DNA from: Paracoccus suum
GTDB taxonomy: Bacteria; Pseudomonadota; Alphaproteobacteria; Rhodobacterales; Rhodobacteraceae
Reading direction: 5' to 3'
Length of the DNA stretch: 32,000 nt
NCBI RefSeq assembly: GCF_003324675.1
Contig: NZ_CP030918.1
Span: forward strand, 2,340,001 to 2,372,000
The position numbers and the translations under genes are program-made. Position 1 is the first letter of the stretch. The number at the start of each line of letters is the position of its first letter. This document shows positions 18,776 to 32,000 of this stretch, in pieces. The notes under the pieces were generated by a model. That model ran no database searches and had not been told where the DNA came from. It saw only the letters and a list, made by a program, of their open reading frames with translations.

Positions 18776-19213
18776 TCACATGGCAAAATCGTCCAGCGTG
18801 ATGACGCCATCGCCGTCCTTGTCGAGCTCGGCCAACCAACCGTCCGTGCCGGCGAGGAACTCTTCACGCCCGACGATGCCATTGCCATCGGTATCGCTGG
18901 CGGTCAGGTTCATGCCATCGGCAACGGCCTGCATCTGATCGCGCTGGTCGGCCTCGTAGTTGGCGACGTCATTGGCGCGCGCCTCGTCGAAATAGACGTA
19001 TTCATCGGCGTCGAGGATGTCATTCTGATCGGCATCGAAGGCCATGAACACGTTGCCGCGCATTTCGCGCAATTCTTCCAGTGTTGCCGCGCCGTTTCCA
19101 TCAAGGTCCCAGCTTTGCATGAACTGGTCTCCGGGCGTGGTCTGGGCCAGGGCAGCGGTGGCGGTGGCGGTGGCGGTGAGGACAAAGATGGCGGGGATGA
19201 GGTGGCGTTTCAC
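18776..19213 (-). CDS. Secreted EF-hand calcium-binding protein (four EF loops)
   Basis: The GTG start at 19213 follows AAGGA and gives VKRHLIPAIFVLTATATATAALA as a signal peptide. It has four canonical 12-residue loops: DLDGNGAATLEE, DADQNDILDADE, DTDGNGIVGREE and DKDGDGVITLDD. The ORF-track start at 19276 adds 21 basic residues and is less likely. Confidence 0.75.
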   Translation of the reverse strand: MKRHLIPAIFVLTATATATAALAQTTPGDQFMQSWDLDGNGAATLEELREMRGNVFMAFDADQNDILDADEYVYFDEARANDVANYEADQRDQMQAVADGMNLTASDTDGNGIVGREEFLAGTDGWLAELDKDGDGVITLDDFAM

Positions 19214-19279
19214 GAGTGAATTCCTTGATTTTCTGGGCGTGGGATAGCCCGATCCTGCTGTGCGCATCGGGCGCATTGT

Positions 19280-19783
19280 TCAGGCAGACGGGCGGATCAT
19301 CCGCCGCATCACGTTGTTCTTCAGAACGAGGCGGTGAAACGGCACCGCGAGCACGTGCAGCGCGATGAGGGCGAGCAGCACGACCTTGAGCACGTTGTGC
19401 GCCTGTGCGGCGGGTGTCACGTCAGCGAACCAGGCCAGCGAGCCGGTAACGGCCATCGCCGCGAGCACTGCGTAGAAAGCCCAGTGCGCGATGTGACTCA
19501 GGGTCTTCAGCGGCGCGGGCTCGTTCTCGGGGGCCGCAGGCACACCGCGGGTCAGGCGCAGCACGAGGCGCGAGACGACGAAGGCGAGGATCAATGCGCC
19601 GCCCGCCACATGGGCGAGGATCAGCGGGTCGAAGGCATAGGTCTCGCCCGCGCGGATCGCATCCCAGGCGCCCGAGATGGCGTCCTTGAAGATGTACTGC
19701 CCGGCGACGAGCACGGCGACGGCCCAGTGCAGGGCGATCTGGGTGGCGGAATATCCTTGTGGAGCGGCGGTCGTGGCGGTCAT
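19280..19783 (-). CDS. Cytochrome b561 family (CybB-like) membrane di-haem protein
   Basis: It has four hydrophobic helices with conserved His positions: IALHWAVAVLV, LILAHVAGGAL, LSHIAHWAFYAVL and LIALHVLAVPFH. Length is 167 aa. Confidence 0.8.
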   Translation of the reverse strand: MTATTAAPQGYSATQIALHWAVAVLVAGQYIFKDAISGAWDAIRAGETYAFDPLILAHVAGGALILAFVVSRLVLRLTRGVPAAPENEPAPLKTLSHIAHWAFYAVLAAMAVTGSLAWFADVTPAAQAHNVLKVVLLALIALHVLAVPFHRLVLKNNVMRRMIRPSA

Positions 19784-19846
19784 GGCTCAGGTCCCTCGTC
19801 GTGCGCAGCGGGCCGGCGCCGTTGCGACGCCGACCGCACGCTCTTG

Positions 19847-20389
19847 TCATTGCTGTTCGGCATCGGCGCCGTGCATGCGCTGCATGCGGGCCATCATCTG
19901 CGCCGGGAACGCCATCTCTTCGGCGCTGATTTCGCCGTCCTCGTTGGCATCGAGCATGGTGAAGGGCCGCTCGGCCATGCCGCGGGTGACCTCTGCGAAG
20001 AGGGCTGCGAACTCGTCCGAGGACAGCGCGCCGTTCCCGTCACCATCGTGCTCGGTGTGCAGCGCGGCGATGCCTGCCTCGAGTTCGGCCGCCGTCACCG
20101 TGCCGTCCTCATCAGAGTCGAAGGACTGGTAGACCGGGTTGTCGGCCATGCCGCCCATCCCCATCGGCCCCGGATTATTGAAATGGGGCCCTCCGCGCTG
20201 CATCATCATGCCGGGGCCGCGGCCGTCCTGCATGAAGCCGGCCTGGTCGCCATGCATCATCTGCATCATCTGTCGCGGGCCCCAGCCGTCGTGCGGACCC
20301 CAGCCACCGGCGATGGCGGGGATGGCGATGGCGCCGATCACGGCGGCGGTGGCGGCTGCGCCGAGGGTCAGAATGGTCTTGCGTTTCAT
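19847..20389 (-). CDS. Periplasmic Met/Gly-rich EF-hand protein (three EF loops)
   Basis: The signal peptide is MKRKTILTLGAAATAAVIGAIAIPAIAG. A Met/Gly/His/Pro-rich segment follows (…RQMMQMMHGDQAGFMQDGRGPGMMMQRGGPHF..PMGMGGM). The EF loops are DSDEDGTVTAAE, DGDGNGALSSDE and DANEDGEISAEE. Confidence 0.75.
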   Translation of the reverse strand: MKRKTILTLGAAATAAVIGAIAIPAIAGGWGPHDGWGPRQMMQMMHGDQAGFMQDGRGPGMMMQRGGPHFNNPGPMGMGGMADNPVYQSFDSDEDGTVTAAELEAGIAALHTEHDGDGNGALSSDEFAALFAEVTRGMAERPFTMLDANEDGEISAEEMAFPAQMMARMQRMHGADAEQQ

Positions 20390-23197: not shown

Positions 23198-24097
23198 TCA
23201 GAACCTGTTCGCCGGTATCTTGAAGTAGCTGTTTCCGTCACCCTCCGGTTCCGGCAGGCGGCCGCCCCGAAGATTGAACTGCAGCGCATGCAGCATCCGG
23301 TCGGGTAGGTTGAGTGTCGCGTCTCGCGCCTCGCGGACCTTCACGTATTCGTCTTTCGGAACGCCGCCCCCCAGGTGCTTGTTCGACGCCTTCTGCTCGG
23401 CGACTGTACTTTCCCAAGCCGGACCATCGCGGCCCTTGGCGCCGTAGTCGTGGCCAATGAAAATGCGATGCTCGTCTGGCAGCGCGAGGATCGCCATCAG
23501 CGAGTCGTAGAGCATGGCGGCCGATCCGCCGGGGAAGTCGGCGCGGGCGGTTCCGCTGTCAGGCTGCATGAACGTGTCATGCGCGAAGATCGCGTCGCCC
23601 ACCACATAGGTGATCGAGCCGAGAGTGTGGCCGGGCGACAGCATCACGCGCACGTCGATTTCGCCCACGCGGAACGTGTCGCCCTCGGCGAAGAGCCGAT
23701 CGAAATCGGCCTCCGGGTCGAATGCGTCCGGCGTGTTGTAGAAGTCGCGCCAGAGTTCTGCGATCTCGCGCACCTTCTCGCCGATTGCGTTGGGCGCGCC
23801 GGTCTTCTCCTTGAGATAGGCGGCCGCCATCAGGTGGTCGGCATGGGGGTGCGTGTCGAGGATCCATTCGAGTGTCAGACCCTCGCGCTCGATCCAGTCG
23901 AGCGCCCAGTCGGCACATTCGGTCGAGGTGTGCGCGCGGGCGGGATTGAAGTCGAGAACCACGTCGATCAGCGCGCATTTCTTCGTCGCCGGGTCGATGC
24001 AGATGTACTGGCAGCTGCCCGAGGCCTCGTCGTAGAAACCGACGACATCGGGGCTTCCAGGTCCACGGGATGCGCTTTTCGAATGCGGGATCGTCAT
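23198..24097 (-). CDS. MBL-fold persulfide dioxygenase-like protein, paralogue 1
   Basis: The start is MTIPHSKS.. (ATG 24097, after AAGGAAAGGA). It carries the metal motif DTHPHADHL plus SPGHTLGS, GTARADFPGG and IGHDYG. Length is about 299 aa. The ORF-track N-terminal extension runs into the sulP 3' end. Confidence 0.8.
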   Translation of the reverse strand: MTIPHSKSASRGPGSPDVVGFYDEASGSCQYICIDPATKKCALIDVVLDFNPARAHTSTECADWALDWIEREGLTLEWILDTHPHADHLMAAAYLKEKTGAPNAIGEKVREIAELWRDFYNTPDAFDPEADFDRLFAEGDTFRVGEIDVRVMLSPGHTLGSITYVVGDAIFAHDTFMQPDSGTARADFPGGSAAMLYDSLMAILALPDEHRIFIGHDYGAKGRDGPAWESTVAEQKASNKHLGGGVPKDEYVKVREARDATLNLPDRMLHALQFNLRGGRLPEPEGDGNSYFKIPANRF

Positions 24098-24116
24098 GCA
24101 GTCCTTTCCTTTCAGG

Positions 24117-25856
24117 TCATTCTGCGGCTTTGGCCGGATCGGCCGGTTGGGTGAGCGCCTTCCAGGCGTCATACTGGGACAGGAAGACGCGGCCATTGAG
24201 TTGGTCGAGGAAGTGCGTCGTCCTGAGGCGGTCCATCACCGGACCCTTCACTTCCGATAGGTGCAGTCCGACCCCAAGATCCGTGAGTCTGTGATTGATC
24301 GCCTCCAGACTTTCGAGGGCAGAGTAGTCGATCTCGTTTACCGCGGAGCACATAAGGATCACGTGGCGCAGCGACTGACCGTCGACCACGCGATCCTGGA
24401 TCAGATCCTCGAGGAACCGGGCGTTCACGAAGTAGAGGCTCTCGTCCACACGCAGGGCGAGGATCTCCGGATGCGTTTCGACTTCATGCCGGTTGATGTT
24501 CCGGAAATGGTTCGTTCCGGGAACCAGCCCGACCTCGGCGACATGCGGTTTGGACGTCTTGTAGAGGTGCAGCGCGATGGAGAGGATGACGCCGGAGGCC
24601 ACGCCGATCTCGACTCCCAGCGTCAGGGTCAGCAGAATCGTGGCAGTGACCGCCGCGAAATCGGCGCGTGAGTACGACCAGGTCTTCTTCAGGATCGAGA
24701 AGTCGACGAGGCTGAGCACGGCGACGACGATTGTGGCGGCCAGCGTCGCGTTGGGAAGGTAATAGACCAGCGGCGTCAGGGCGAGCGCGGCAATCGCGAG
24801 GCCGATCGCGGTAAAGGCGCCGGCAGCCGGCGTTTCGGCGCCCGCGTCGAAGTTCACGACCGAGCGCGCGAACCCGCCGGTGACGGGATAGCCGCCGGTG
24901 AAGGCCGCGCCCAGATTCGCAGCGCCGAGGCCGATGAGTTCCTGGTTCGGGTCGATGCGCTGACGCTTCTTGGCAGCGAGCGTCTGGGCGACGGAAATGG
25001 ACTCCACGAAGCCGATGATGGAGATCAGGATCGCCGGGATTGCCAGTTGGCGGATCAGCTCGGGTGCGAGACCGGGCATGGTCAGCGGCGGCAGGGACTG
25101 TGGCACCTCGCCGACGATGGAGACGCCGCGCTCGGCGAGACCGAAAGCCCAAACCGCGAGTGTCGTGACCACGACTGCCGCCACGGGCCCCGCCTTGGTG
25201 ACTATGTCGGCCAGAAGCGGACCTGCGCCGATCTTGCGCAGGAGCGGCTTCAGTCCCTTGCGCACCCAGAAAAGAAATGCCGTCGCCGTGACGCCTATGA
25301 CCACCGTTATCGGATTGATCTGCCCCAGATTCGAGACAAGCGCACCGACCATCTCGATCAGCGTGTGACCGCTCGCCTCGATCCCGAGGATATGCTTGAG
25401 CTGGCTCGTCGCGATCAGGATGCCCGAAGCAGTGATGAACCCGGCGATCACTGGATGGCTGAGGAAATTTGCCAGAAATCCCAGCCGGAAGACGCCGAGC
25501 AGCAACAGGAAGCCACCGGAAAGCCCCGCGAGCGTCAGCGCTGCGACGGCATAGCCCGCGGTGCCCTGCTCGGCGACCTGACCGACGGCGGAGGCGGTCA
25601 GGAGCGACACGACCGCCACAGGCCCCACAGCGAGCGCGCGGGACGTGCCGAAGACCGCGTAGAGCAGGATCGGCGCGATCGAGGCGTAGATCCCGGCTTC
25701 GGGCGGCAAGCCTGCCAGAAGCGCATAGGCCAGCGACTGCGGGATCAGCATGATCGTCACGATCACCGCCGCCACGAGATCGTTCGTGAGCGCCGATCGG
25801 TTGTATTGCCGGCCCCACCTGAGGATCGGAAAATAGCTGGCAAGTCTTGGGATCAT
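24117..25856 (-). CDS. SulP-family anion transporter with C-terminal STAS domain
   Basis: The N-terminus reads MIPRLASYFPILRWGRQYNRSALTNDLVAAVIVTIMLIPQSLAYALLAGLPPEAGIYAS, and GAANLGAAFTGGYPVTGGFARSVVN is also present. The STAS tail reads HVILMCSAVNEIDYSALESLE...LHLSEVKGPVMDRL. Length is 579 aa. Confidence 0.9.
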   Translation of the reverse strand: MIPRLASYFPILRWGRQYNRSALTNDLVAAVIVTIMLIPQSLAYALLAGLPPEAGIYASIAPILLYAVFGTSRALAVGPVAVVSLLTASAVGQVAEQGTAGYAVAALTLAGLSGGFLLLLGVFRLGFLANFLSHPVIAGFITASGILIATSQLKHILGIEASGHTLIEMVGALVSNLGQINPITVVIGVTATAFLFWVRKGLKPLLRKIGAGPLLADIVTKAGPVAAVVVTTLAVWAFGLAERGVSIVGEVPQSLPPLTMPGLAPELIRQLAIPAILISIIGFVESISVAQTLAAKKRQRIDPNQELIGLGAANLGAAFTGGYPVTGGFARSVVNFDAGAETPAAGAFTAIGLAIAALALTPLVYYLPNATLAATIVVAVLSLVDFSILKKTWSYSRADFAAVTATILLTLTLGVEIGVASGVILSIALHLYKTSKPHVAEVGLVPGTNHFRNINRHEVETHPEILALRVDESLYFVNARFLEDLIQDRVVDGQSLRHVILMCSAVNEIDYSALESLEAINHRLTDLGVGLHLSEVKGPVMDRLRTTHFLDQLNGRVFLSQYDAWKALTQPADPAKAAE

Positions 25857-25881
25857 TGCGGGTGAGCTCTTGGGGTTTGGG

Positions 25882-25910
25882 GAACGGGGCGCAACCGGTG
25901 CGCCCCGTTC
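25882..25910. other. Strong intercistronic stem-loop between sqr and sulP
   Basis: GAACGGGGCGCA-ACCGG-TGCGCCCCGTTC forms a 12-bp perfect stem with a 5-nt loop. It sits in the 100-nt gap between the sqr stop (25957) and the sulP start (25856). No T/U tract is present on either strand. Confidence 0.5.
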
Positions 25911-25956
25911 GTGGACGCGTGCTCAGCGGGAGGAGAGGCCGGCGCGCGTTCTCGTC

Positions 25957-27636
25957 TTACTCGGCAGCGACCTCAAGCTTCGCGGGCTTCGCCATCCACT
26001 CGCGCCCCCGAAGCATCGCCTGCCAGTAGATCGGCGGCAGCATCTTCTCCTTCAGAAACCACGCGGCCCGGCTCGGCTTCGTTCCGTCGATCACAAAAGA
26101 GGGGAAGCTCGGCATTACCACGCCGCCATAGCCGAACTCGGCCAGGACAATCTTGCCGCGCTCGACCGTCAGCGGGCACGAGCCGTAGCCGTCGTATTGC
26201 GCCACGGCCGAGCGACCGGCGATGTCGGCAACGATGTTCTCGGCAACCGTGGGCGCCTGCTTGCGCGCCGCGGCGGCCGTCTTGGCGTTGGGCGCGTTCA
26301 TCACGTCGCCGAGCGCCCAGATATTGTCGAAACTCTTGTGCCGCAGTGTGGCCTGATCGACATCGACCCAGCCCGCCTGATCGGCCAAGGGCGAGACGCG
26401 GATGAAATCCGGTGCGGTCTGCGGCGGGCAGACATGCATCATGTCGAATTCCATCTCGACGCGCCGGGGCTCCTTCTCCGGCTCCTTGACTTCGAAGGTG
26501 GCTTTTTTTGCCGGTCCGTCCACCGCCACGAGATTGTGGAAGAAGTCGAGCGTCGCGTCGTACTTCTTCACGTATTCCATCAAGGCCGGCACGTAGTCCT
26601 TCACGCCGAAGAGAACGCCGCCCGCGTTGCAGAAGTGAATGTCGATATCCTTCAGCCGCCCGGAGCGGTGCCAGTGGTCGGCCGAGAGATACATCGCCTT
26701 CTGCGGCGCGCCGGCGCATTTGATCGGCATCGGCGGCTGCGTGAAGACCGCGGTCCCGCCGCGCATCTCCTGCACCAGTTGCCAGGTATAGGGCGCGAGG
26801 TCGTAGCGATAGTTCGAAGTCACGCCGTTTCGTCCGAGCGTCTCGACAAGGCCCTCGATCTTGCCCCAGTCCAATTTAAGGCCAGGACAAACGACAAGCC
26901 GATCGTATTTCACCACGCGGCAGCCATCGAGGATGACAGCGTTGTTCTGCGGCTCGAACGCAGCGACTGCGGCCTTGATCCAGGTGACATCTTTCGGGAT
27001 CAGGCTGCCCATGGTCTTGGCGGTTTCCTGCGCCTCGAATATGCCGCCACCGACCATCGTCCAGCCGGGCTGATAGTAATGAATGTCGGCAGGATCGATG
27101 ATCGCGATCTCGAGGCCCGGCTTGCGCGCCTTGAGGCTGGCAGCGACCGCGATGCCGCCGGCGCCCGCGCCGACGATCACCACCTTGTAATGAGCGTCGC
27201 CGGTGTCGGTCGGCGTCTTCCCGCCATTGGCGACGCGGCGCGCGACACCGTTCATGTCATAGCCTGCCGCCTTCGTCATGGCGAGGATTTCGGAAACCGG
27301 CCGCTTTTTCGCCTCGTGCAGCGACCAGAGTGTCGCCGAGCGTGTGCCAGTCCGGCAGTAGGCCAGAACCGGGCGTTGCACCTCTGCCAGCGCCTGACCG
27401 AAGGCAGCAACATCGTCGTCAGTTACCATCCCGGACTGAACCGGGACATATCTCGCCTCGATCCCCTCGGCCTTGGCAGCGGCCTCGATCTCCTCGAAGC
27501 TCGGCTGATCCGCGCCTTCCCCGTCGGGGCGGTTGCAGATGATTGCGCGATAACCAGCCGACTTGATCGCGGCCATGTCCGAGGCTGCGATCTGCGGGGA
27601 CACCGTGACTTTCGGCGAGATTTCTTTCAGTTCCAT
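25957..27636 (-). CDS. sqr: Fusion of a DUF442 (PTP/rhodanese-like sulfurtransferase) domain to a type II (SQOR-like) sulfide:quinone oxidoreductase
   Basis: The start is MELKEISPK (ATG 27636, after GGGAGGA). Residues 1 to about 135 read ...YRAIICNRPDGEGADQP...VLAYCRTGTRSATLW, which is the DUF442 Cys loop. A Rossmann motif KVVIVGAGAGGIAVA follows. The blocks PIKCAGAPQKAMYL, HVCPPQ, AGWVDVD, NIWALGDV..PNAKTAAA, YDGYGSCPL and PIYWQAMLRG match mitochondrial-type SQR block for block. Confidence 0.85.
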   Translation of the reverse strand: MELKEISPKVTVSPQIAASDMAAIKSAGYRAIICNRPDGEGADQPSFEEIEAAAKAEGIEARYVPVQSGMVTDDDVAAFGQALAEVQRPVLAYCRTGTRSATLWSLHEAKKRPVSEILAMTKAAGYDMNGVARRVANGGKTPTDTGDAHYKVVIVGAGAGGIAVAASLKARKPGLEIAIIDPADIHYYQPGWTMVGGGIFEAQETAKTMGSLIPKDVTWIKAAVAAFEPQNNAVILDGCRVVKYDRLVVCPGLKLDWGKIEGLVETLGRNGVTSNYRYDLAPYTWQLVQEMRGGTAVFTQPPMPIKCAGAPQKAMYLSADHWHRSGRLKDIDIHFCNAGGVLFGVKDYVPALMEYVKKYDATLDFFHNLVAVDGPAKKATFEVKEPEKEPRRVEMEFDMMHVCPPQTAPDFIRVSPLADQAGWVDVDQATLRHKSFDNIWALGDVMNAPNAKTAAAARKQAPTVAENIVADIAGRSAVAQYDGYGSCPLTVERGKIVLAEFGYGGVVMPSFPSFVIDGTKPSRAAWFLKEKMLPPIYWQAMLRGREWMAKPAKLEVAAE

Positions 27637-27715
27637 TGTTGCATTCCTCCCGGTTGGTTTTGATCGAAGACGGTCCACCGGCGCCGAAACGCCGCCATCA
27701 CACCTGCGGACTTCT

Positions 27716-28207
27716 TCAAGCAGATGGTTCTTCGTCTTGTATGACTGAAACCATTTTCGCGCTGTACGCCTGTTCACCGATGCGCTCGATCAACTCCAGT
27801 TGCAGCTCCAACCAGGCCTTATGGCCTTCCTCATCCATTGCGATCTTTTCGAAGAGCATGCGCGATCCGACATCGTTGGCTTCATAGGCCTGTCGGGCCG
27901 CGCTGAGATAGAATTCAACGGCTTCCTCTTCATCGGCGAGGTCCGCCTTGAACATGTCTGTCAGGGTTTCGGCTCGCTTGGGTGATTTCGCGAAAGCGAT
28001 CTCAGGCGTTCCTTTCAAGAACATGATACGCTCGATGAACAGGTCGGAGTGCCCGATTTCTTCTGCCTGTTCCTCGCGCATCTTGTCTGCAAGCAAATTG
28101 AGTCCCCAATCGTCGAGGACATGCGCATGCAATTGATATTGATGCGCGGCGCTCATTTCCATCTGAAGCGCCTTGTTCAGGTTTTCCACCGTCTTGTTGT
28201 TGGACAT
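27716..28207 (-). CDS. Bacterioferritin-like (ferritin-like di-iron) protein
   Basis: The start is MSNNKTVENLNKAL (ATG 28207, after AAAGGAGGA). The 163-aa product aligns by eye with Bfr along its whole length: LNKxL..E..A..QY, W.L, the EEIGH ferroxidase E/H, FIERIMFLKG, ADEEEAVEFY and DEEGHKAWLE. Confidence 0.8.
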   Translation of the reverse strand: MSNNKTVENLNKALQMEMSAAHQYQLHAHVLDDWGLNLLADKMREEQAEEIGHSDLFIERIMFLKGTPEIAFAKSPKRAETLTDMFKADLADEEEAVEFYLSAARQAYEANDVGSRMLFEKIAMDEEGHKAWLELQLELIERIGEQAYSAKMVSVIQDEEPSA

Positions 28208-28244
28208 GGAATCCTCCTTTCGCCGTGTTGCCGCTGTTCTATTC

Positions 28245-29129
28245 TCAAAGACCGTTGACTGGCACCTTGAGCACGCGATTGCCGTCCTTGTCGGTAGGCA
28301 CTTTGCCCGCGCGCATATTGACCTGAAGCGACGGGATGATGAGCCTGGGCATGGCGAGCTGCGCATCGCGCTCGGTCCGGAACTTGATGAACTCGTCACG
28401 TGTCTTGCCGGCGCCTACGTGGATGTTGTGGGCCCTTTCATCGGCGACGGTCGTCTCCCAGCGGATTTCGCGCCCGTTCGGGCCGTAGTCGTGACACATG
28501 AAGAGCCGCGTCTCGTCGGGCAGCGACAGCACTTTCTGGATAGAATCGTAGAGTGTACCGGCGTCGCCGCCGGGGAAGTCCGCCCGCGCCGATCCGCCAT
28601 CCGGCATGAAGAGCGTGTCGCCGACGAAGGCCGCGTCACCCATCACGTGTGTCATACAGGCAGGCGTGTGGCCGGGCGTCGCCATTGCGACCGCCTGCAT
28701 GTTTCCCACCATGTAGGTGTCGCCATCCTCGAACAGTGCGTCGAACTGCGATCCGTCGCGCTGGAACTCGGTACCCTCGTTGAACACCTTGCCGAAGGTG
28801 TCCTGCACTACCATGATTCTGGCGCCGATGCCGATCTTTCCGCCCAGTTTCTGCTGCAGGTACGGCGCAGCGCTCAGATGGTCGGCGTGAACGTGGGTCT
28901 CGATGATCCACTCCACCGACAGGCCCATTTCCTCCACCTTGCGGATGAGCATGTCGGCATGGTCGTATGTGATACGCCCTGCCGCATAATCAAAGTCCAT
29001 GACGCTGTCGACGATCGCGCAGGCGTTCGACGCAGGATCCTTCACAATGTAGCTGATGGTGTTGGTCGCGTCGTCGAAGAACGCATGGACATCGGGCTTG
29101 ACGTCCAGATTGATCGGATAGCGAGTCAT
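28245..29129 (-). CDS. MBL-fold persulfide dioxygenase-like protein, paralogue 2
   Basis: The start is MTRYPINLDVKPD (ATG 29129, after AAAGGAGAA). It carries the metal motif ETHVHADHL plus TPGHTPAC, GSARADFPGG and MCHDYG. At about 294 aa it has the same architecture as the 23198-24097 product. Confidence 0.8.
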   Translation of the reverse strand: MTRYPINLDVKPDVHAFFDDATNTISYIVKDPASNACAIVDSVMDFDYAAGRITYDHADMLIRKVEEMGLSVEWIIETHVHADHLSAAPYLQQKLGGKIGIGARIMVVQDTFGKVFNEGTEFQRDGSQFDALFEDGDTYMVGNMQAVAMATPGHTPACMTHVMGDAAFVGDTLFMPDGGSARADFPGGDAGTLYDSIQKVLSLPDETRLFMCHDYGPNGREIRWETTVADERAHNIHVGAGKTRDEFIKFRTERDAQLAMPRLIIPSLQVNMRAGKVPTDKDGNRVLKVPVNGL

Positions 29130-29151
29130 GAAATTCTCCTTTTGCAGACCG

Positions 29152-29589
29152 TCAGGCGGTTGCGCGCCGGGCGCTCGCGCCTCTGGACTGGAGGAACCTG
29201 GCGAGGAAGATGCCCCCGACCACTGCTGCGATGAAGGCGAACACTTCCCACCGGCCGGTCCCGAGCGCGGGCAACGCTCCGCCCGGGCAAAAACCGGCGA
29301 TGCCCCAGCCGATACCGAACACAGCCGAGCCGCCCAGAAGGCGGGCATCGACGGTGCGGCTGATCGGCACCTGAAACGCCTCCGCCAGAACGGGCGCGGG
29401 CCGCCCGAAGACCAGCCGGTAGCCGATGAAGGTCGTCACCAGCGCTCCGCCCATCACGAAGATGAGCGACGGGTCCCAGCTGCCCGCGATGTCAAAGAAG
29501 TTCAGTACCTTGGCCGGGTTCGCCATGCCGGAGAGTGCGATTCCGGTGCCGAACACCAGTCCGATGATGTAGGCGGCGATCAAACGCAT
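29152..29589 (-). CDS. Half-size YeeE/YedE-family sulfur-compound transport membrane protein
   Basis: The 145-aa product begins MRLIAAYIIGLVFGTGIALSGMANPAKVLNFFD and contains GIGWGIAGFCPGG, the conserved Cys-containing re-entrant motif of YeeE/YedE halves. Confidence 0.8.
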   Translation of the reverse strand: MRLIAAYIIGLVFGTGIALSGMANPAKVLNFFDIAGSWDPSLIFVMGGALVTTFIGYRLVFGRPAPVLAEAFQVPISRTVDARLLGGSAVFGIGWGIAGFCPGGALPALGTGRWEVFAFIAAVVGGIFLARFLQSRGASARRATA

Positions 29590-29592
29590 GGC

Positions 29593-30024
29593 TCAGGCTC
29601 CCAGAACGTGACGAACGACGTAGACCGTGGCGAAGGTCGTGATCATGAAGGTGAGCGTCGCGGCGACCGACCTGACGCTCAAGCGCGCCATGCCACAGAC
29701 GCCATGACCGGACGTGCAGCCGGACCCGAAGGTCACGCCAATGCCGACGAGCAATCCGCCGCCGATCAGCATCGCTGTCGAGACGGGCACCTGGACCGCC
29801 GGCATCTCACCGGTGATCACGAGCAGCGCAAGCGGCCCGCTCACCATGCCCAGCAGCACCGCGCCGCGCCACGCGAACTCGCTGCCCGAGGACGGTGTGA
29901 GCAAGCCGGCAAGAATGCCGGTCGCGCCCATGATCCGGCCGAGAAACAGCATCAGCAACGTGGCCGCGAGACCGATCAGAACGCCGCCGCCGAGGGAGGC
30001 CCAGGGTGTAAACACGGTCTCCAT
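29593..30024 (-). CDS. Half-size YeeE/YedE-family sulfur-compound transport membrane protein
   Basis: The start is METVFTPWASLGGGVLIGL (ATG 30024). It contains the motif GVTFGSGCTSGHGVCGMARLS. It is about 143 aa and lies 3 nt upstream of its partner half. Confidence 0.8.
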   Translation of the reverse strand: METVFTPWASLGGGVLIGLAATLLMLFLGRIMGATGILAGLLTPSSGSEFAWRGAVLLGMVSGPLALLVITGEMPAVQVPVSTAMLIGGGLLVGIGVTFGSGCTSGHGVCGMARLSVRSVAATLTFMITTFATVYVVRHVLGA

Positions 30025-30028
30025 CGGC

Positions 30029-30241
30029 TCAGGCCCGGCAGGTCTTGACGCCGAGCACGGAATAGACCGGGCAGACACGGGTCACGGCAACGACCAGCAT
30101 GACGAGCCCCACGACAGCCGCGCCGTATTTGAGCAGCGCGCCTTCGAAGAGCGGCAGACCGCTCAGAAACGCGAGATAGAGAAGCGCGAGGCCAAGGGCG
30201 GCCCGAAAGATACGATCGACGGTTCCAACATTGACGCTCAC
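30029..30241 (-). CDS. DUF2892 (YgaP-membrane-domain-like) small membrane protein
   Basis: The GTG start at 30241 follows GGAGGA. The 70-aa product carries the family hallmarks N-terminal GxxDRxxR (GTVDRIFRAALG) and C-terminal CPxYxxxG (RVCPVYSVLGVKT). Confidence 0.75.
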   Translation of the reverse strand: MSVNVGTVDRIFRAALGLALLYLAFLSGLPLFEGALLKYGAAVVGLVMLVVAVTRVCPVYSVLGVKTCRA

Positions 30242-30296
30242 GGCAGATCCTCCAGGATAAAAGCTGTCTGACGAATATAGCTTTGCCGCACAAGCT

Positions 30297-30315
30297 TCAG
30301 TGACATTGTCACTGA
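30297..30315. promoter_or_regulatory. Perfect 9-1-9 palindrome TCAGTGACA-T-TGTCACTGA upstream of the sulfur operon (candidate operator)
   Basis: It was read directly from the sequence. Its centre at 30306 is 65 bp upstream of the DUF2892 start codon. Sixteen of the 19 nt recur at 31547-31562. Confidence 0.6.
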
Positions 30316-30361
30316 GCGCAGGAAAAGTCCGTCGCCGGAGGCCGCGTGCGGGCCGTGTCGA

Positions 30362-31027
30362 TCAATCGCTCTCGGCGAGTCGCTGCAGGCTTTCGCGGGC
30401 GAGCAGCCGGACCCGACCGCGCGCCTGGCTCACGAACCCGCGTTTCTGGAAGTCCTGCAGGACGCGGGACACGACTTCGCGCGCCGTGCCCAGCTCCCGG
30501 GCGAGGTCGTCATGCGTCGCCGATACTTCGACAGCCGTGCCGGAGAGAGCGAGCAGCCTTGCCGCGAGGCGCACGTCGATCCGTCCGAAGGCCACCTCGT
30601 CCACGACATGCAGGAGATCCAGCAGACGGCGCGAATAGGCCGCAAACACGAACTTGCGAAAGGCCGGTTCCTCCGCCGCCAGCAGATCGAAGGTCTCTTG
30701 CGAGAGCGCAACGGCAACGAGCGCCGTTTCCGCCACCCCCTCGGCGTTGTAGGCCTCTTCGGCCAGCATGCAGGCCGTCGTCAGCACGCAGCTTTCACCC
30801 GCCTCCACCCGGTATAGCACGATCTCCCGCCCCGACTCGGCCGTTTGCGAGACCCGGAGCGTTCCCTCGACCAGAAACATCAGGTTGTCGGGACGATTAT
30901 CGGGGCTGAAGACGGTCTGGCCGCGCGCGTAGCGTGCGACCTGTGCACTGGCGAGCAGCCTGTCGCGCACCGTCCGGGGAAGACCGCGCGTACCCTGGAA
31001 CCGTTCGGTCCAGTCGCCGATGCTCAT
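30362..31027 (-). CDS. Crp/Fnr-family transcriptional regulator
   Basis: The start MSIGDWTERF (ATG 31027) overlaps the rrf2 stop (ATGA). The cNMP-binding-like barrel reads GQTVFSPDNRPDNLMFLVEGTLRV...GREIVLYRVEAGESCV. The C-terminal HTH reads THDDLARELGTAREVVSRVLQDFQKRGFV. It has no FNR-type N-terminal Cys cluster. Confidence 0.85.
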   Translation of the reverse strand: MSIGDWTERFQGTRGLPRTVRDRLLASAQVARYARGQTVFSPDNRPDNLMFLVEGTLRVSQTAESGREIVLYRVEAGESCVLTTACMLAEEAYNAEGVAETALVAVALSQETFDLLAAEEPAFRKFVFAAYSRRLLDLLHVVDEVAFGRIDVRLAARLLALSGTAVEVSATHDDLARELGTAREVVSRVLQDFQKRGFVSQARGRVRLLARESLQRLAESD

Positions 31028-31494
31028 GTCGCGCTCCGCGTCGGCGCCGGGGCGCCTTTCTCGACGGTCGCGATGCGCCCCAAGAGCTGATCGCGATTGG
31101 CGGAAATGTCCGCCAGCGTGAGATCGTCGAGGACCGCCATGAACGCCCGGGTGGCCTCGTGGAGGCCCCGGGACAGCCGGCAAACCCCGATGAGGGGGCA
31201 TGTGTTCGACGCCGGATTGAAACATTCGACAACATCGAGCGGCCCCTCGGTCAACCTGATGACGTCACCCACGACGATCTCCTCGGCCGGACACGCAAGA
31301 CGGAACCCGCCGCCCCGCCCGCGCTGGGTCTTGACGAAGCCGGCGCGCCCCAGCTCGTGGACGATCTTCACGATGTGCGGCCGGGCCAGCCCATGCACCC
31401 GCACCACGTCATCGACGCGGATGAGATCCGGCGCCCTGAGTGCGGCAAGTTGAAGCGATCGAAGCGCGTAGTTGGAATATGCCGTGAGCTTCAT
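31024..31494 (-). CDS. Rrf2-family (NsrR/IscR/RirA-like) Fe-S-type transcriptional regulator
   Basis: The N-terminal wHTH reads MKLTAYSNYALRSLQLAAL...ARPHIVKIVHELGRAGFVKTQRGRGGGFRLA. Three clustered Cys are present in ECFNPASNTCPLIGVC, with spacing C-x7-C-x5-C. Confidence 0.85.
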   Translation of the reverse strand: MKLTAYSNYALRSLQLAALRAPDLIRVDDVVRVHGLARPHIVKIVHELGRAGFVKTQRGRGGGFRLACPAEEIVVGDVIRLTEGPLDVVECFNPASNTCPLIGVCRLSRGLHEATRAFMAVLDDLTLADISANRDQLLGRIATVEKGAPAPTRSAT

Positions 31495-31543
31495 CTATGT
31501 CTCCCGATGAAACTTCTACCCAGCATATAACTTTTTTGCAAGC

Positions 31544-31562
31544 TGGGTGACAATGTCACTGA
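31544..31562. promoter_or_regulatory. Second copy of the GTGACA-N-TGTCACTGA operator-like palindrome, in the rrf2/prx divergent promoter
   Basis: The plus strand reads TGGGTGACAATGTCACTGA and the minus strand reads TCAGTGACATTGTCACCCA, so 16 of 19 nt are identical to 30297-30315. The same CAAGCT lies immediately 5' of both sites on the plus strand. The centre at 31553 is 59 bp from the rrf2 start and 61 bp from the prx start. Confidence 0.55.
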
Positions 31563-31613
31563 ACGGCACGGCGAGGCGCGGTATCTGCCGGGCAACCCAC
31601 GAAAGGAAACATC

Positions 31614-32000
31614 ATGCCTCTGCTTCTCGGAGATATCGTTCCAGACTTCACCGCTGACACGACGCTCGGACCGATCTCGTTCCATGACTGGATCGGGGAT
31701 GACTGGGCCTTCTTCTTCAGCCACCCGGCGGACTTCACGCCGGTCTGCACCACCGAGATGGGCCGGACATCGCAACTCAGCGCCGAGTTCGACAAGCGCG
31801 GCGTCAAGCCGATCGGGCTCAGCACCGACACGGTCGACGAGCATCTGAAATGGATCGAGGATGTGAACGACACGCAGAACACGAGGCTGCGATTTCCCAT
31901 CGTCGCGGACCCGGATCTGAAGATCGCGCGGCTCTACGACATGATCCATCCGGCCCAGTCCGAGACCGCCGCCGTGCGCTCGGTCTTCATCATTGACAAC
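31614..32000 (+). CDS. 1-Cys peroxiredoxin (Prx6-type); the 3' end runs off the window
   Basis: It is not in the ORF track because it has no stop inside the window. The ATG at 31614 follows GAAAGGAAAC. My translation is MPLLLGDIVPDFTADTTLGPISFHDWIGDDWAFFFSHPADFTPVCTTEMGRTSQLSAEFDKRGVKPIGLSTD...RSVFIIDN, with the canonical PVCTTE peroxidatic-Cys motif. The 152-aa minus-strand ORF at 31491-31949 is its antisense shadow. Confidence 0.85.
   Translation, partial: MPLLLGDIVPDFTADTTLGPISFHDWIGDDWAFFFSHPADFTPVCTTEMGRTSQLSAEFDKRGVKPIGLSTDTVDEHLKWIEDVNDTQNTRLRFPIVADPDLKIARLYDMIHPAQSETAAVRSVFIIDN

Follow-up and report, generated by a model that had tools for sequence, protein, structure and literature searches.

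The 32,000-nucleotide stretch of the Paracoccus suum genome analyzed here (contig NZ_CP030918.1, positions 2,340,001–2,372,000 of the forward strand; hereafter the window) carries a perfect 19-bp palindrome in front of an operon for sulfide oxidation, and a second copy of it in the intergenic region from which the regulatory genes rrf2 and crp and a peroxiredoxin gene (prx) diverge. Comparison of this locus with its relatives in genomes, plasmids and metagenomes indicates that the palindrome is a conserved operator, neither a chance repeat nor a hairpin. Its cognate protein is, with a probability of about 0.8, the Crp/Fnr-like regulator encoded beside it, as judged from sequence comparisons.

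The palindrome and its conservation

The two copies of the palindrome in the window are as follows.

30297–30315: site A, perfect 19-bp 9-1-9 palindrome TCAGTGACATTGTCACTGA, at which the Crp/Fnr-like protein is proposed to control the minus-strand sulfur operon headed by ygaP

31544–31562: site B, second copy, reading TGGGTGACAATGTCACTGA on the plus strand and centred in the divergent intergenic region between rrf2-crp and the peroxiredoxin gene

Site A occupies part of the 120-bp gap between the stop codon of the crp-like gene (30362) and the GTG start of a YgaP-like gene (30241), with its centre, 30306, at 65 nt from the latter. Site B, in which only the right arm is complete, has its centre at 31553, which is 59 nt from the ATG of rrf2 (31494) and 61 nt from that of the peroxiredoxin gene (31614). 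The 16-mer TCAGTGACATTGTCAC is found exactly at 30297–30312 on the plus strand and at 31547–31562 on the minus strand. Searching for it with up to three mismatches returned four matches, all of them inside sites A and B, against 0.09 predicted from shuffled sequences. The core GTGACAWTGTCAC has only two occurrences in the window, one per site, and the 13-bp core GTGACNNNGTCAC is mismatch-free at sites A and B only within the 32 kb. On the plus strand, the hexamer CAAGCT stands immediately 5′ of both copies, at 30291–30296 and 31538–31543. Scans with motifs and position weight matrices (PWMs) located no further copy, elsewhere in the window, of the palindrome or of a second element, box 2, described below. 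A first-pass annotation of this DNA had reported the perfect repeat in the 120-bp gap with its centre 65 bp upstream, the exact 16-nt recurrence on the minus strand and the hexamer before both sites, and had considered the recurrence improbable by chance; all of these points hold.

Four transcription units or genes surround the two sites.

30362–31027, minus strand: gene for a Crp/Fnr-family regulator of 221 aa, whose ATG overlaps the stop codon of rrf2 (ATGA); assigned from Pfam, relatives in the PDB and conservation

31024–31494, minus strand: gene for an Rrf2-family regulator of 156 aa, with NsrR of S. coelicolor as closest solved structure

23198–30241, minus strand: target operon, defined from open reading frames (ORFs), Pfam and NCBIfam, with synteny kept in loci L001–L082

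31614–32000, plus strand: peroxiredoxin gene, cut by the end of the window; divergent target of site B

The operon, with the gene order ygaP-yeeE-pdo-bfr-sqr-sulP-pdo, encodes a YgaP-like transmembrane (TM) protein (DUF2892), two YeeE/YedE-type half transporters, a persulfide-dioxygenase-like (Blh/PDO-like) protein of the metallo-beta-lactamase (MBL) fold, a ferritin-like protein, a DUF442-SQR-like flavoprotein, a SulP-STAS permease and a second MBL-fold protein.

Close homologues of the Rrf2 protein number more than 1000, and the nearest DNA match, at 94% identity, is a Chelativorans plasmid. A scan with an alignment of Rrf2, keeping one genome per species, yielded 80 loci from Rhodobacterales, Hyphomicrobiales, Fodinicurvata, Ferrovibrio and others, and the main set consisted of 82 rrf2-anchored loci (L001–L082; 1.43 Mb including flanks of ±10 kb). 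The order prx, rrf2-crp, ygaP operon is kept in nearly all of them. Exact cores of the palindrome numbered 86 in this set, with 1.6 expected from composition, and all 86 lie at the rrf2/prx or the operon promoter: 64–66 nt upstream of the rrf2 ATG in the main clade, and, at the operon promoter, 12–56 nt past the crp stop codon in most loci. Two cores that seemed displaced precede an operon that an insertion has moved. Within the ±10 kb flanks, neither the palindrome nor box 2 was found outside these canonical positions. The first-pass annotation had interpreted the palindrome as the shared operator of a small regulon, and had named conservation upstream of orthologous operons as a check on this proposal and scattering through the genome as a repetitive extragenic palindromic (REP)-like element as its refutation. 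The conservation is seen across the 82 loci, the exact cores in them are not scattered, and the proposal is upheld, with a local regulon made up of the rrf2-crp/prx divergent promoter and the ygaP-led operon.

In a BLAST search with the 31-nt site against 72,556 plasmids, the intergenic, crp-adjacent matches among those examined came from Chelativorans, Ruegeria and Paracoccus. Matches looked at in Vibrio and Sphingobium (E ≥2) had no crp or ygaP nearby and apparently lay inside coding or insertion sequences (IS), and none of the matches examined added a member to the regulon.

The family consensus of the site is T-C-N-GTGAC-WWW-GTCAC-N-G-A, that is, TGTGA-N5-TCACA, in agreement with the earlier description of Crp-like half-sites separated by a spacer one base short of that in TGTGA-N6-TCACA. 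The GTGA/TCAC elements are invariant in 55 of 55 sites from loci lacking rrf2 and in 74–76 of 77 distinct sites, and distant loci read TGTGAC...GTCACA. Spacing is also strongly preserved: 1.95 Mb of sequence contained 135 exact cores with a GTGAC-N3-GTCAC arrangement, versus 0–5 for each of N1, N2, N4, N5 and N6. Of about 130 sites, only two show the canonical even spacing, GTGAC-N4-GTCAC. These two N4 sites (at about 2529 in L092 and about 2777 in L099) occupy the exact operator position in loci that have crp and lack rrf2, and the family therefore tolerates both spacings.

The probable cognate regulator

The presence of the palindrome was compared with that of crp and of rrf2. Among genome loci, 70 of the 71 that contain crp also contain the palindrome, and six of the seven that lack crp are devoid of it. 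When counted over loci with sufficient sequence, crp and the palindrome are both present in 70, crp alone in one and neither of them in five (Fisher p = 3e-7, uncorrected for phylogeny); of the two crp-less loci on short contigs, L063 is without the palindrome and L068 has it. The only crp locus without a palindrome, L067, has lost the operon too, and in L062 crp and the palindrome are jointly missing, with box 2 and ygaP being kept.

A protein search of plasmids uncovered crp orthologues with no adjoining rrf2. Five such loci were examined, and the palindrome was found just upstream of the DUF2892 gene in all five.

L083, Thioclava plasmid: site GTGTGACGAAGTCACCG

L084, P. marcusii plasmid: site TTGGTGATCTTGTCACCG

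L085, P. aminophilus plasmid: site CAGTAACTAAGTCACAG

L086, Azospirillum plasmid: site CTGTGACTCCGTCACAG

L087, Thiothrix plasmid: site TGTGTGACTTTGTTACAG

The rrf2-less loci belong to alpha- and gammaproteobacteria, at 44–59% protein identity, with one at 69%. In Azospirillum the palindrome is 1.2 kb away from crp, yet directly upstream of the DUF2892 gene. Box 2 was absent from the promoters of the five plasmid loci, the sole match of at least 10 bits (10.5 bits, in L085) lying ~4.5 kb upstream of crp.

A scan of metagenomes with an alignment of the Crp-like protein provided 80 further loci, of which 48 have no rrf2 within reach and eight have it. The N3 palindrome, with at most one mismatch, was present in 43 of the 48 rrf2-less loci, against an expectation by chance of ~0.013 per locus. 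It is situated mostly 20–150 nt past the crp stop codon, and in a few cases further downstream or upstream of crp. Two of the remaining five loci have the N4 version in the same place, and the other three have no sulfur-operon gene downstream of crp. All eight metagenomic loci with rrf2 carry the palindrome. The co-occurrence in genomes, plasmids and metagenomes indicates, therefore, that the palindrome follows crp together with a DUF2892-led target, and that box 2 follows rrf2. The first-pass annotation had left the cognate protein open, with the Crp-like and the Rrf2 proteins as equal candidates; this parity does not survive, as the palindrome tracks crp and is independent of rrf2.

As for gene content, a DUF2892 membrane protein is always encoded alongside the Crp-like gene, and sqr, pdo and yeeE usually are. 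crp and the gene for a small, two-TM DUF2892/YgaP-like protein form a conserved core pair (L083–L087 and most of L088–L167), which is found even where, as in Thiothrix and Azospirillum, the 5 kb inspected contain no annotated sqr or pdo.

The assignment to the Crp-like protein must be weighed against several points. In L068, a 1.3-kb contig of a Roseovarius metagenome-assembled genome, the palindrome lies at about 918, between rrf2 and ygaP, with no crp between them, and crp could be elsewhere in that genome. The co-occurrence statistics ignore shared ancestry, and the passage from co-occurrence to binding is inferential at every step. Moreover, the N5 spacing is one base shorter than in any CRP/FNR-family site known to us, and we know of no odd-spaced site in that family.

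The protein itself has features suited to the proposed role. It consists of a cyclic nucleotide monophosphate (cNMP)-binding-like domain and a Crp-type helix-turn-helix (HTH), as recognized by Pfam, and the orthologues in the loci fetched, from Alpha- and Gammaproteobacteria, are 34–96% identical. The 73 rrf2-linked sequences have an invariant recognition helix, TAREV(I/V)SR, which distant crp-only orthologues retain with either T or S as its first residue. An R-E..R pattern is present in this helix; in CRP, an Arg-Glu...Arg pattern reads GTGA. Only the residue following SR varies (V in the main clade, Q in a subclade described below), and with an invariant core the comparison of the helix with the bases flanking the site is uninformative.

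Within the sensor domain, conservation is highest in the stretch GRExxLYR...S-C-V-L-T-T-A-C. Its C-X5-C motif (residues about 80 and 86) is invariant among the 73 sequences except for one Tyr, and is kept from Hyphomicrobiales to Thiothrix. These are the only two conserved Cys positions of the family alignment, and both are in the beta-roll. When aligned to the CRP of M. tuberculosis, the two cysteines flank the FGEL phosphate-binding motif, and the closest solved homologue, 3DV8 from Eubacterium rectale (a structural-genomics project), also has both. Most sensors of reactive sulfur species (RSS) use a cysteine pair (PMC13467558), which makes C-X5-C a reasonable candidate for the sensing site, be it of redox state or of persulfide. 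The motif thus placed suggests that the protein senses thiol-reactive sulfur species.

Box 2 and the proposed promoter arrangement

Alignment of the regions around the palindrome brought out a second conserved block, box 2, on the gene side of both copies, which the first-pass annotation had missed. The same block occurs upstream of rrf2 in loci devoid of the palindrome. Its family consensus, obtained with an iterated PWM, is AAGTTATATTTAAAATATAACTT, a 23-bp 11-1-11 repeat framed by AAG...CTT, and the window contains two copies.

30261–30283, minus strand: box 2-A, 23-bp AT-rich 11-1-11 repeat AAGCTATATTCGTCAGACAGCTT, PWM score 17.7 bits, at +23 to +45 from the centre of site A, over the putative −10/start

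31511–31533, minus strand: box 2-B, 23 bp, AAGTTATATGCTGGGTAGAAGTT, PWM score 21.4 bits, on the rrf2 side of site B, at +20 to +42 relative to its centre; candidate operator for autoregulation by Rrf2

The PWM was seeded from rrf2-upstream sequences of one subclade only and then iterated, and the seeded matrix recovered box 2 in the other clade and before the operon. Of its 189 matches, 171 lie upstream of rrf2 or 0.4–3.5 kb past its start, the zone of the operon promoter. In most of the 82 loci box 2 is 38–49 nt (mostly 39–47) upstream of the rrf2 ATG, and in most of the remaining ones it is found elsewhere in the region upstream of rrf2, including loci that lack crp and the palindrome; six of the seven crp-less genome loci have it. 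In metagenomes, seven of the eight loci with rrf2 carry box 2, versus one of the 48 without.

Box 2 is closely similar to the operators of NsrR. NsrR-type proteins bind 23-bp operators (PMC9338935), and an independent PWM was built from 13 NsrR sites of E. coli determined by chromatin immunoprecipitation sequencing (ChIP-seq; PMC5320621), which include the hcp site AAGTTATATTTAATATACATGTT. At a threshold of at least 14 bits, 85 of the 91 matches of this matrix in 1.43 Mb were box 2 sites. Box 2 resembles the 11-1-11 NsrR operators such as that of hcp in its 23-bp length, its AT-richness and its AAG...CTT frame, and the palindrome does not. Neither box 2 nor the palindrome fits, by inspection, the RirA IRO box (TGA-N9-TCA). 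At the protein level, the closest solved structure, S. coelicolor NsrR, is matched with E = 4e-22, and the NCBIfam scores for RirA and NsrR are about equal and both under the cut-off. The protein has an invariant Cys91-X7-Cys99-X5-Cys105, and an invariant Asn8 in place of the cluster ligand Asp8 of S. coelicolor NsrR; its proposed targets are sulfide-oxidation and peroxiredoxin genes instead of the hmp/hcp of NsrR. It looks like a separate subfamily of iron–sulfur (Fe-S) Rrf2 proteins, and box 2 is probably its operator.

A subclade in which crp is about 50% identical (L052, L059–L062, L064–L065, L067, L070, L072–L073, L076–L077 and L079–L082) has no palindrome in the rrf2-prx region and has two copies of box 2 instead, one ~47 nt upstream of rrf2 and another, CCTATATTTGAAATAG, ~100 nt upstream and beside the start of prx. 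Judged from these arrangements, control of prx has been rewired in the subclade, with Rrf2 input replacing that of Crp. Since each copy of the palindrome in the window is paired with a box 2, the promoters would have two inputs.

Promoter elements were sought next to both sites. A strict sigma-70 scan of 30150–31700 returned no full promoter, and the positions given here rest therefore on positional conservation only.

30272–30280, minus strand: CTATATTCG, putative −10 region for the operon, which has a TA at +29/+30 relative to the centre of site A

31582–31587, plus strand: TATCTG, putative −10 element for the peroxiredoxin gene, whose TA falls at +29/+30 relative to the centre of site B

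The TA at +29/+30 is weakly conserved in three sets of promoters, namely the operon promoter of rrf2-containing loci, the prx side of site B and the rrf2-less loci, and in the operon promoter of the rrf2-containing clade it lies within CTATAT/TTATAT. On the prx side it corresponds to −30/−29 on the plus strand of the oriented loci. Nothing is conserved from +11 to +28 in the operon and crp-only promoters, which have no conserved −35. If this TA is the opening of the −10 element, the palindrome is centred near −41, and about −41 is the classical class II position of activators of the CRP/FNR type. The absence of a full sigma-70 promoter fits a dependence on an activator. The geometry suggests class II activation, and the Crp-like protein most likely activates rather than represses.

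Two features of the alignments leave room for other arrangements. Immediately beyond the palindrome, the rrf2 promoter contains a conserved CTTGCA, and this admits an alternative reading with the centre near −46; because of this different reading of the rrf2 promoter, site B may serve mainly the prx promoter. In addition, G-A-C is conserved at +8 to +10, on the gene-proximal side, and could be the remnant of a −35 element, which would fit a repressor that blocks the −35. The Crp-like protein would in that case bind the palindrome to occlude the −35 and be released by a signal, in the manner of SqrR, BigR or CstR. The overlap of the site with the would-be −35 hexamer and the conserved G-A-C speak for repression, as does the fact that most characterized sulfide or persulfide regulators of sqr/pdo operons are repressors (PMC13467558). 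Against it, a centre near −41 with no conserved −35 is the classical arrangement of CRP/FNR activators, and the rrf2-containing lineages already have a repressor-type box on the −10, next to which a second repressor would be redundant. On balance we hold repression by the Crp-like protein to be unlikely.

In the class II arrangement that we prefer, a dimer of the Crp-like protein would bind the palindrome ~41 bp upstream of the putative start, where the palindrome would stand in for a −35 element. The sulfide-oxidation operon led by DUF2892/YgaP would be driven from site A and the peroxiredoxin gene from site B, which may affect rrf2-crp as well. Box 2 would span about −18 to +5, the position of a repressor, from which the Fe-S-type Rrf2 probably represses.

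The proximity of site B to rrf2, 59 nt from its start codon, and the frequent autoregulation and binding to odd-length inverted repeats of Rrf2 regulators could be taken to indicate that the adjacent Rrf2 uses the palindrome as its operator, to repress its own rrf2-crp unit and the sulfur operon. L068, where the palindrome stands between rrf2 and ygaP with no crp, would also fit. This assignment is contradicted by the palindrome being present in 43–45 of the 48 metagenomic crp loci and in the five plasmid loci with no rrf2 nearby, and missing from six of the seven crp-less rrf2 loci. A whole subclade that keeps rrf2 has no palindrome upstream of it, and a separate 23-bp NsrR-like box tracks rrf2. 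We consider it very improbable that Rrf2 is the cognate protein, and an Rrf2/NsrR-type operator class was rejected for the palindrome, which is only 19 bp long and distributed as just described.

Least probable of all, to the point of being negligible, is that the palindrome acts as a nucleic-acid hairpin (for example a terminator or an RNA stability element downstream of crp, or else a repeat of the REP type), which the position of site A just past the crp stop codon and a predicted RNA fold with an 8-bp stem and a 3-nt loop (−20 kcal/mol in a 56-nt context, z-score −2.0) would allow, and which is opposed by the lack of a U-tract, an empty terminator scan, the location of site B in a divergent promoter region and not after a gene, the promoter-only, unscattered exact cores, and arms of invariant sequence that show only one type of pair at each position, without compensatory changes, and with an uncompensated G-to-A at +2 that breaks the ±2 pair in 18 of 77 distinct sites. 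Invariant arms together with uncompensated changes are the pattern of a protein-binding site and not of a hairpin, and the hairpin, terminator and REP-element classes were rejected for want of covariation, of a terminator call and of copies outside promoters.

Some observations concern the genes under the two proposed operators and their surroundings. The ferritin/bacterioferritin-like gene of the operon (27716–28210, minus strand) lies between the PDO-like and the SQR-like genes; on the Chelativorans plasmid a Dps-family gene stands in its place, and many loci lack it. Downstream of the peroxiredoxin gene, the related plasmids examined have cydAB, encoding a cytochrome bd oxidase (L001, 12082–16019; L002, 11832–14317), and in Chelativorans a multicopper oxidase gene is also located there. 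Oxidases of the cytochrome bd type have been reported to be insensitive to sulfide. If prx and cydAB were co-transcribed, site B would control a terminal oxidase too. Among the window ORFs scanned there was no ArsR or CsoR gene. At 18776–20389 on the minus strand, and unrelated to the palindrome, a cytochrome b561-type gene lies between the genes for two EF-hand-domain proteins.

Relation to known regulators and significance

The closest parallel to the proposed operator-regulator pair is E. coli CRP at class II promoters (TGTGA-N6-TCACA, −41.5). Both have a GTGA/TCAC inverted repeat and a cNMP-binding-like fold with a C-terminal HTH and the R-E..R recognition pattern; the inferred centre of the present site is likewise near −41, with no conserved −35 in the operon and crp-only promoters. 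By contrast to CRP, half-sites in the present family are one bp closer (N5, odd 9-1-9), an invariant C-X5-C replaces the pocket residues that hold cAMP, and a local sulfur-detoxification cluster is controlled instead of a global regulon. FNR, FixK and Dnr (TTGAT-N4-ATCAA) belong to the same superfamily and are typically local or global activators that respond to small molecules from binding positions at ~−41.5; they differ in the half-site, TTGAT versus GTGAC, and in the spacing, which is odd here. The N-terminal Cys cluster of FNR is absent from the Crp-like protein. CooA, the haem-containing CO sensor, is a precedent within the CRP family for the detection of a toxic small gas, and not of a cyclic nucleotide, through residues of the beta-roll and C-helix. 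It is among the PDB relatives of the Crp-like protein, at low similarity (E about 1e-7 to 1e-5), and it is haem-based, whereas no haem is evidenced for the protein studied here; the CooA site has the canonical even spacing.

The known regulators of comparable genes are SqrR/BigR (ArsR family), CstR (CsoR family) and the sigma-54 activator FisR. They share with the present system their targets, namely SQR, persulfide dioxygenase, sulfurtransferase-like domains and YeeE-type transporters, and a conserved cysteine pair is a hallmark of these regulators also (PMC13467558). They differ in protein family, which here is Crp/Fnr plus Rrf2, and in DNA motif. A 2026 review lists dedicated reactive-sulfur sensors only from the CsoR, ArsR and Fis superfamilies (PMC13467558). 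Full-text literature yielded no description of a Crp/Fnr- or Rrf2-type regulator of sqr/pdo or of the palindrome, in a search that could not use "Crp/Fnr" as a phrase and did not cover subscription journals, and an earlier description of the system may exist.

Taken at the level of sequence, the palindrome and the Crp-like protein are most likely an operator-regulator pair of the CRP/FNR family, set apart by its unusual spacing, by a candidate effector site that is new and by a putative role in sulfide metabolism not described for the family. A broader proposal, which we advance tentatively and rate at somewhat below even odds, is that the Crp-like protein represents a fourth, undescribed class of sulfide or reactive-sulfur sensor. 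Its C-X5-C, placed in what was once the cyclic-nucleotide pocket, would detect persulfide or polysulfide (or cofactor-bound sulfide), and the protein would activate DUF2892-sqr-pdo operons from an odd-spaced site at −41. In roseobacters and their relatives it would do so in series with the Fe-S Rrf2 repressor, as a two-input gate, responding for example to sulfide AND to the status of oxygen, nitric oxide (NO) or Fe-S clusters.

If true, this would provide a defined motif for the prediction of regulons in genomes and metagenomes, and a natural CRP-family dimer that reads closer half-sites, which bears on the evolution of spacing specificity. The combination of the palindrome with the NsrR-like Rrf2 box would be a ready-made two-input promoter. 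Sulfide oxidation of the SQR/PDO type is common among heterotrophic bacteria, the abundant marine Rhodobacterales among them, and for sulfide biology the Crp-like protein would, if the proposal is right, add a new class of sensor.

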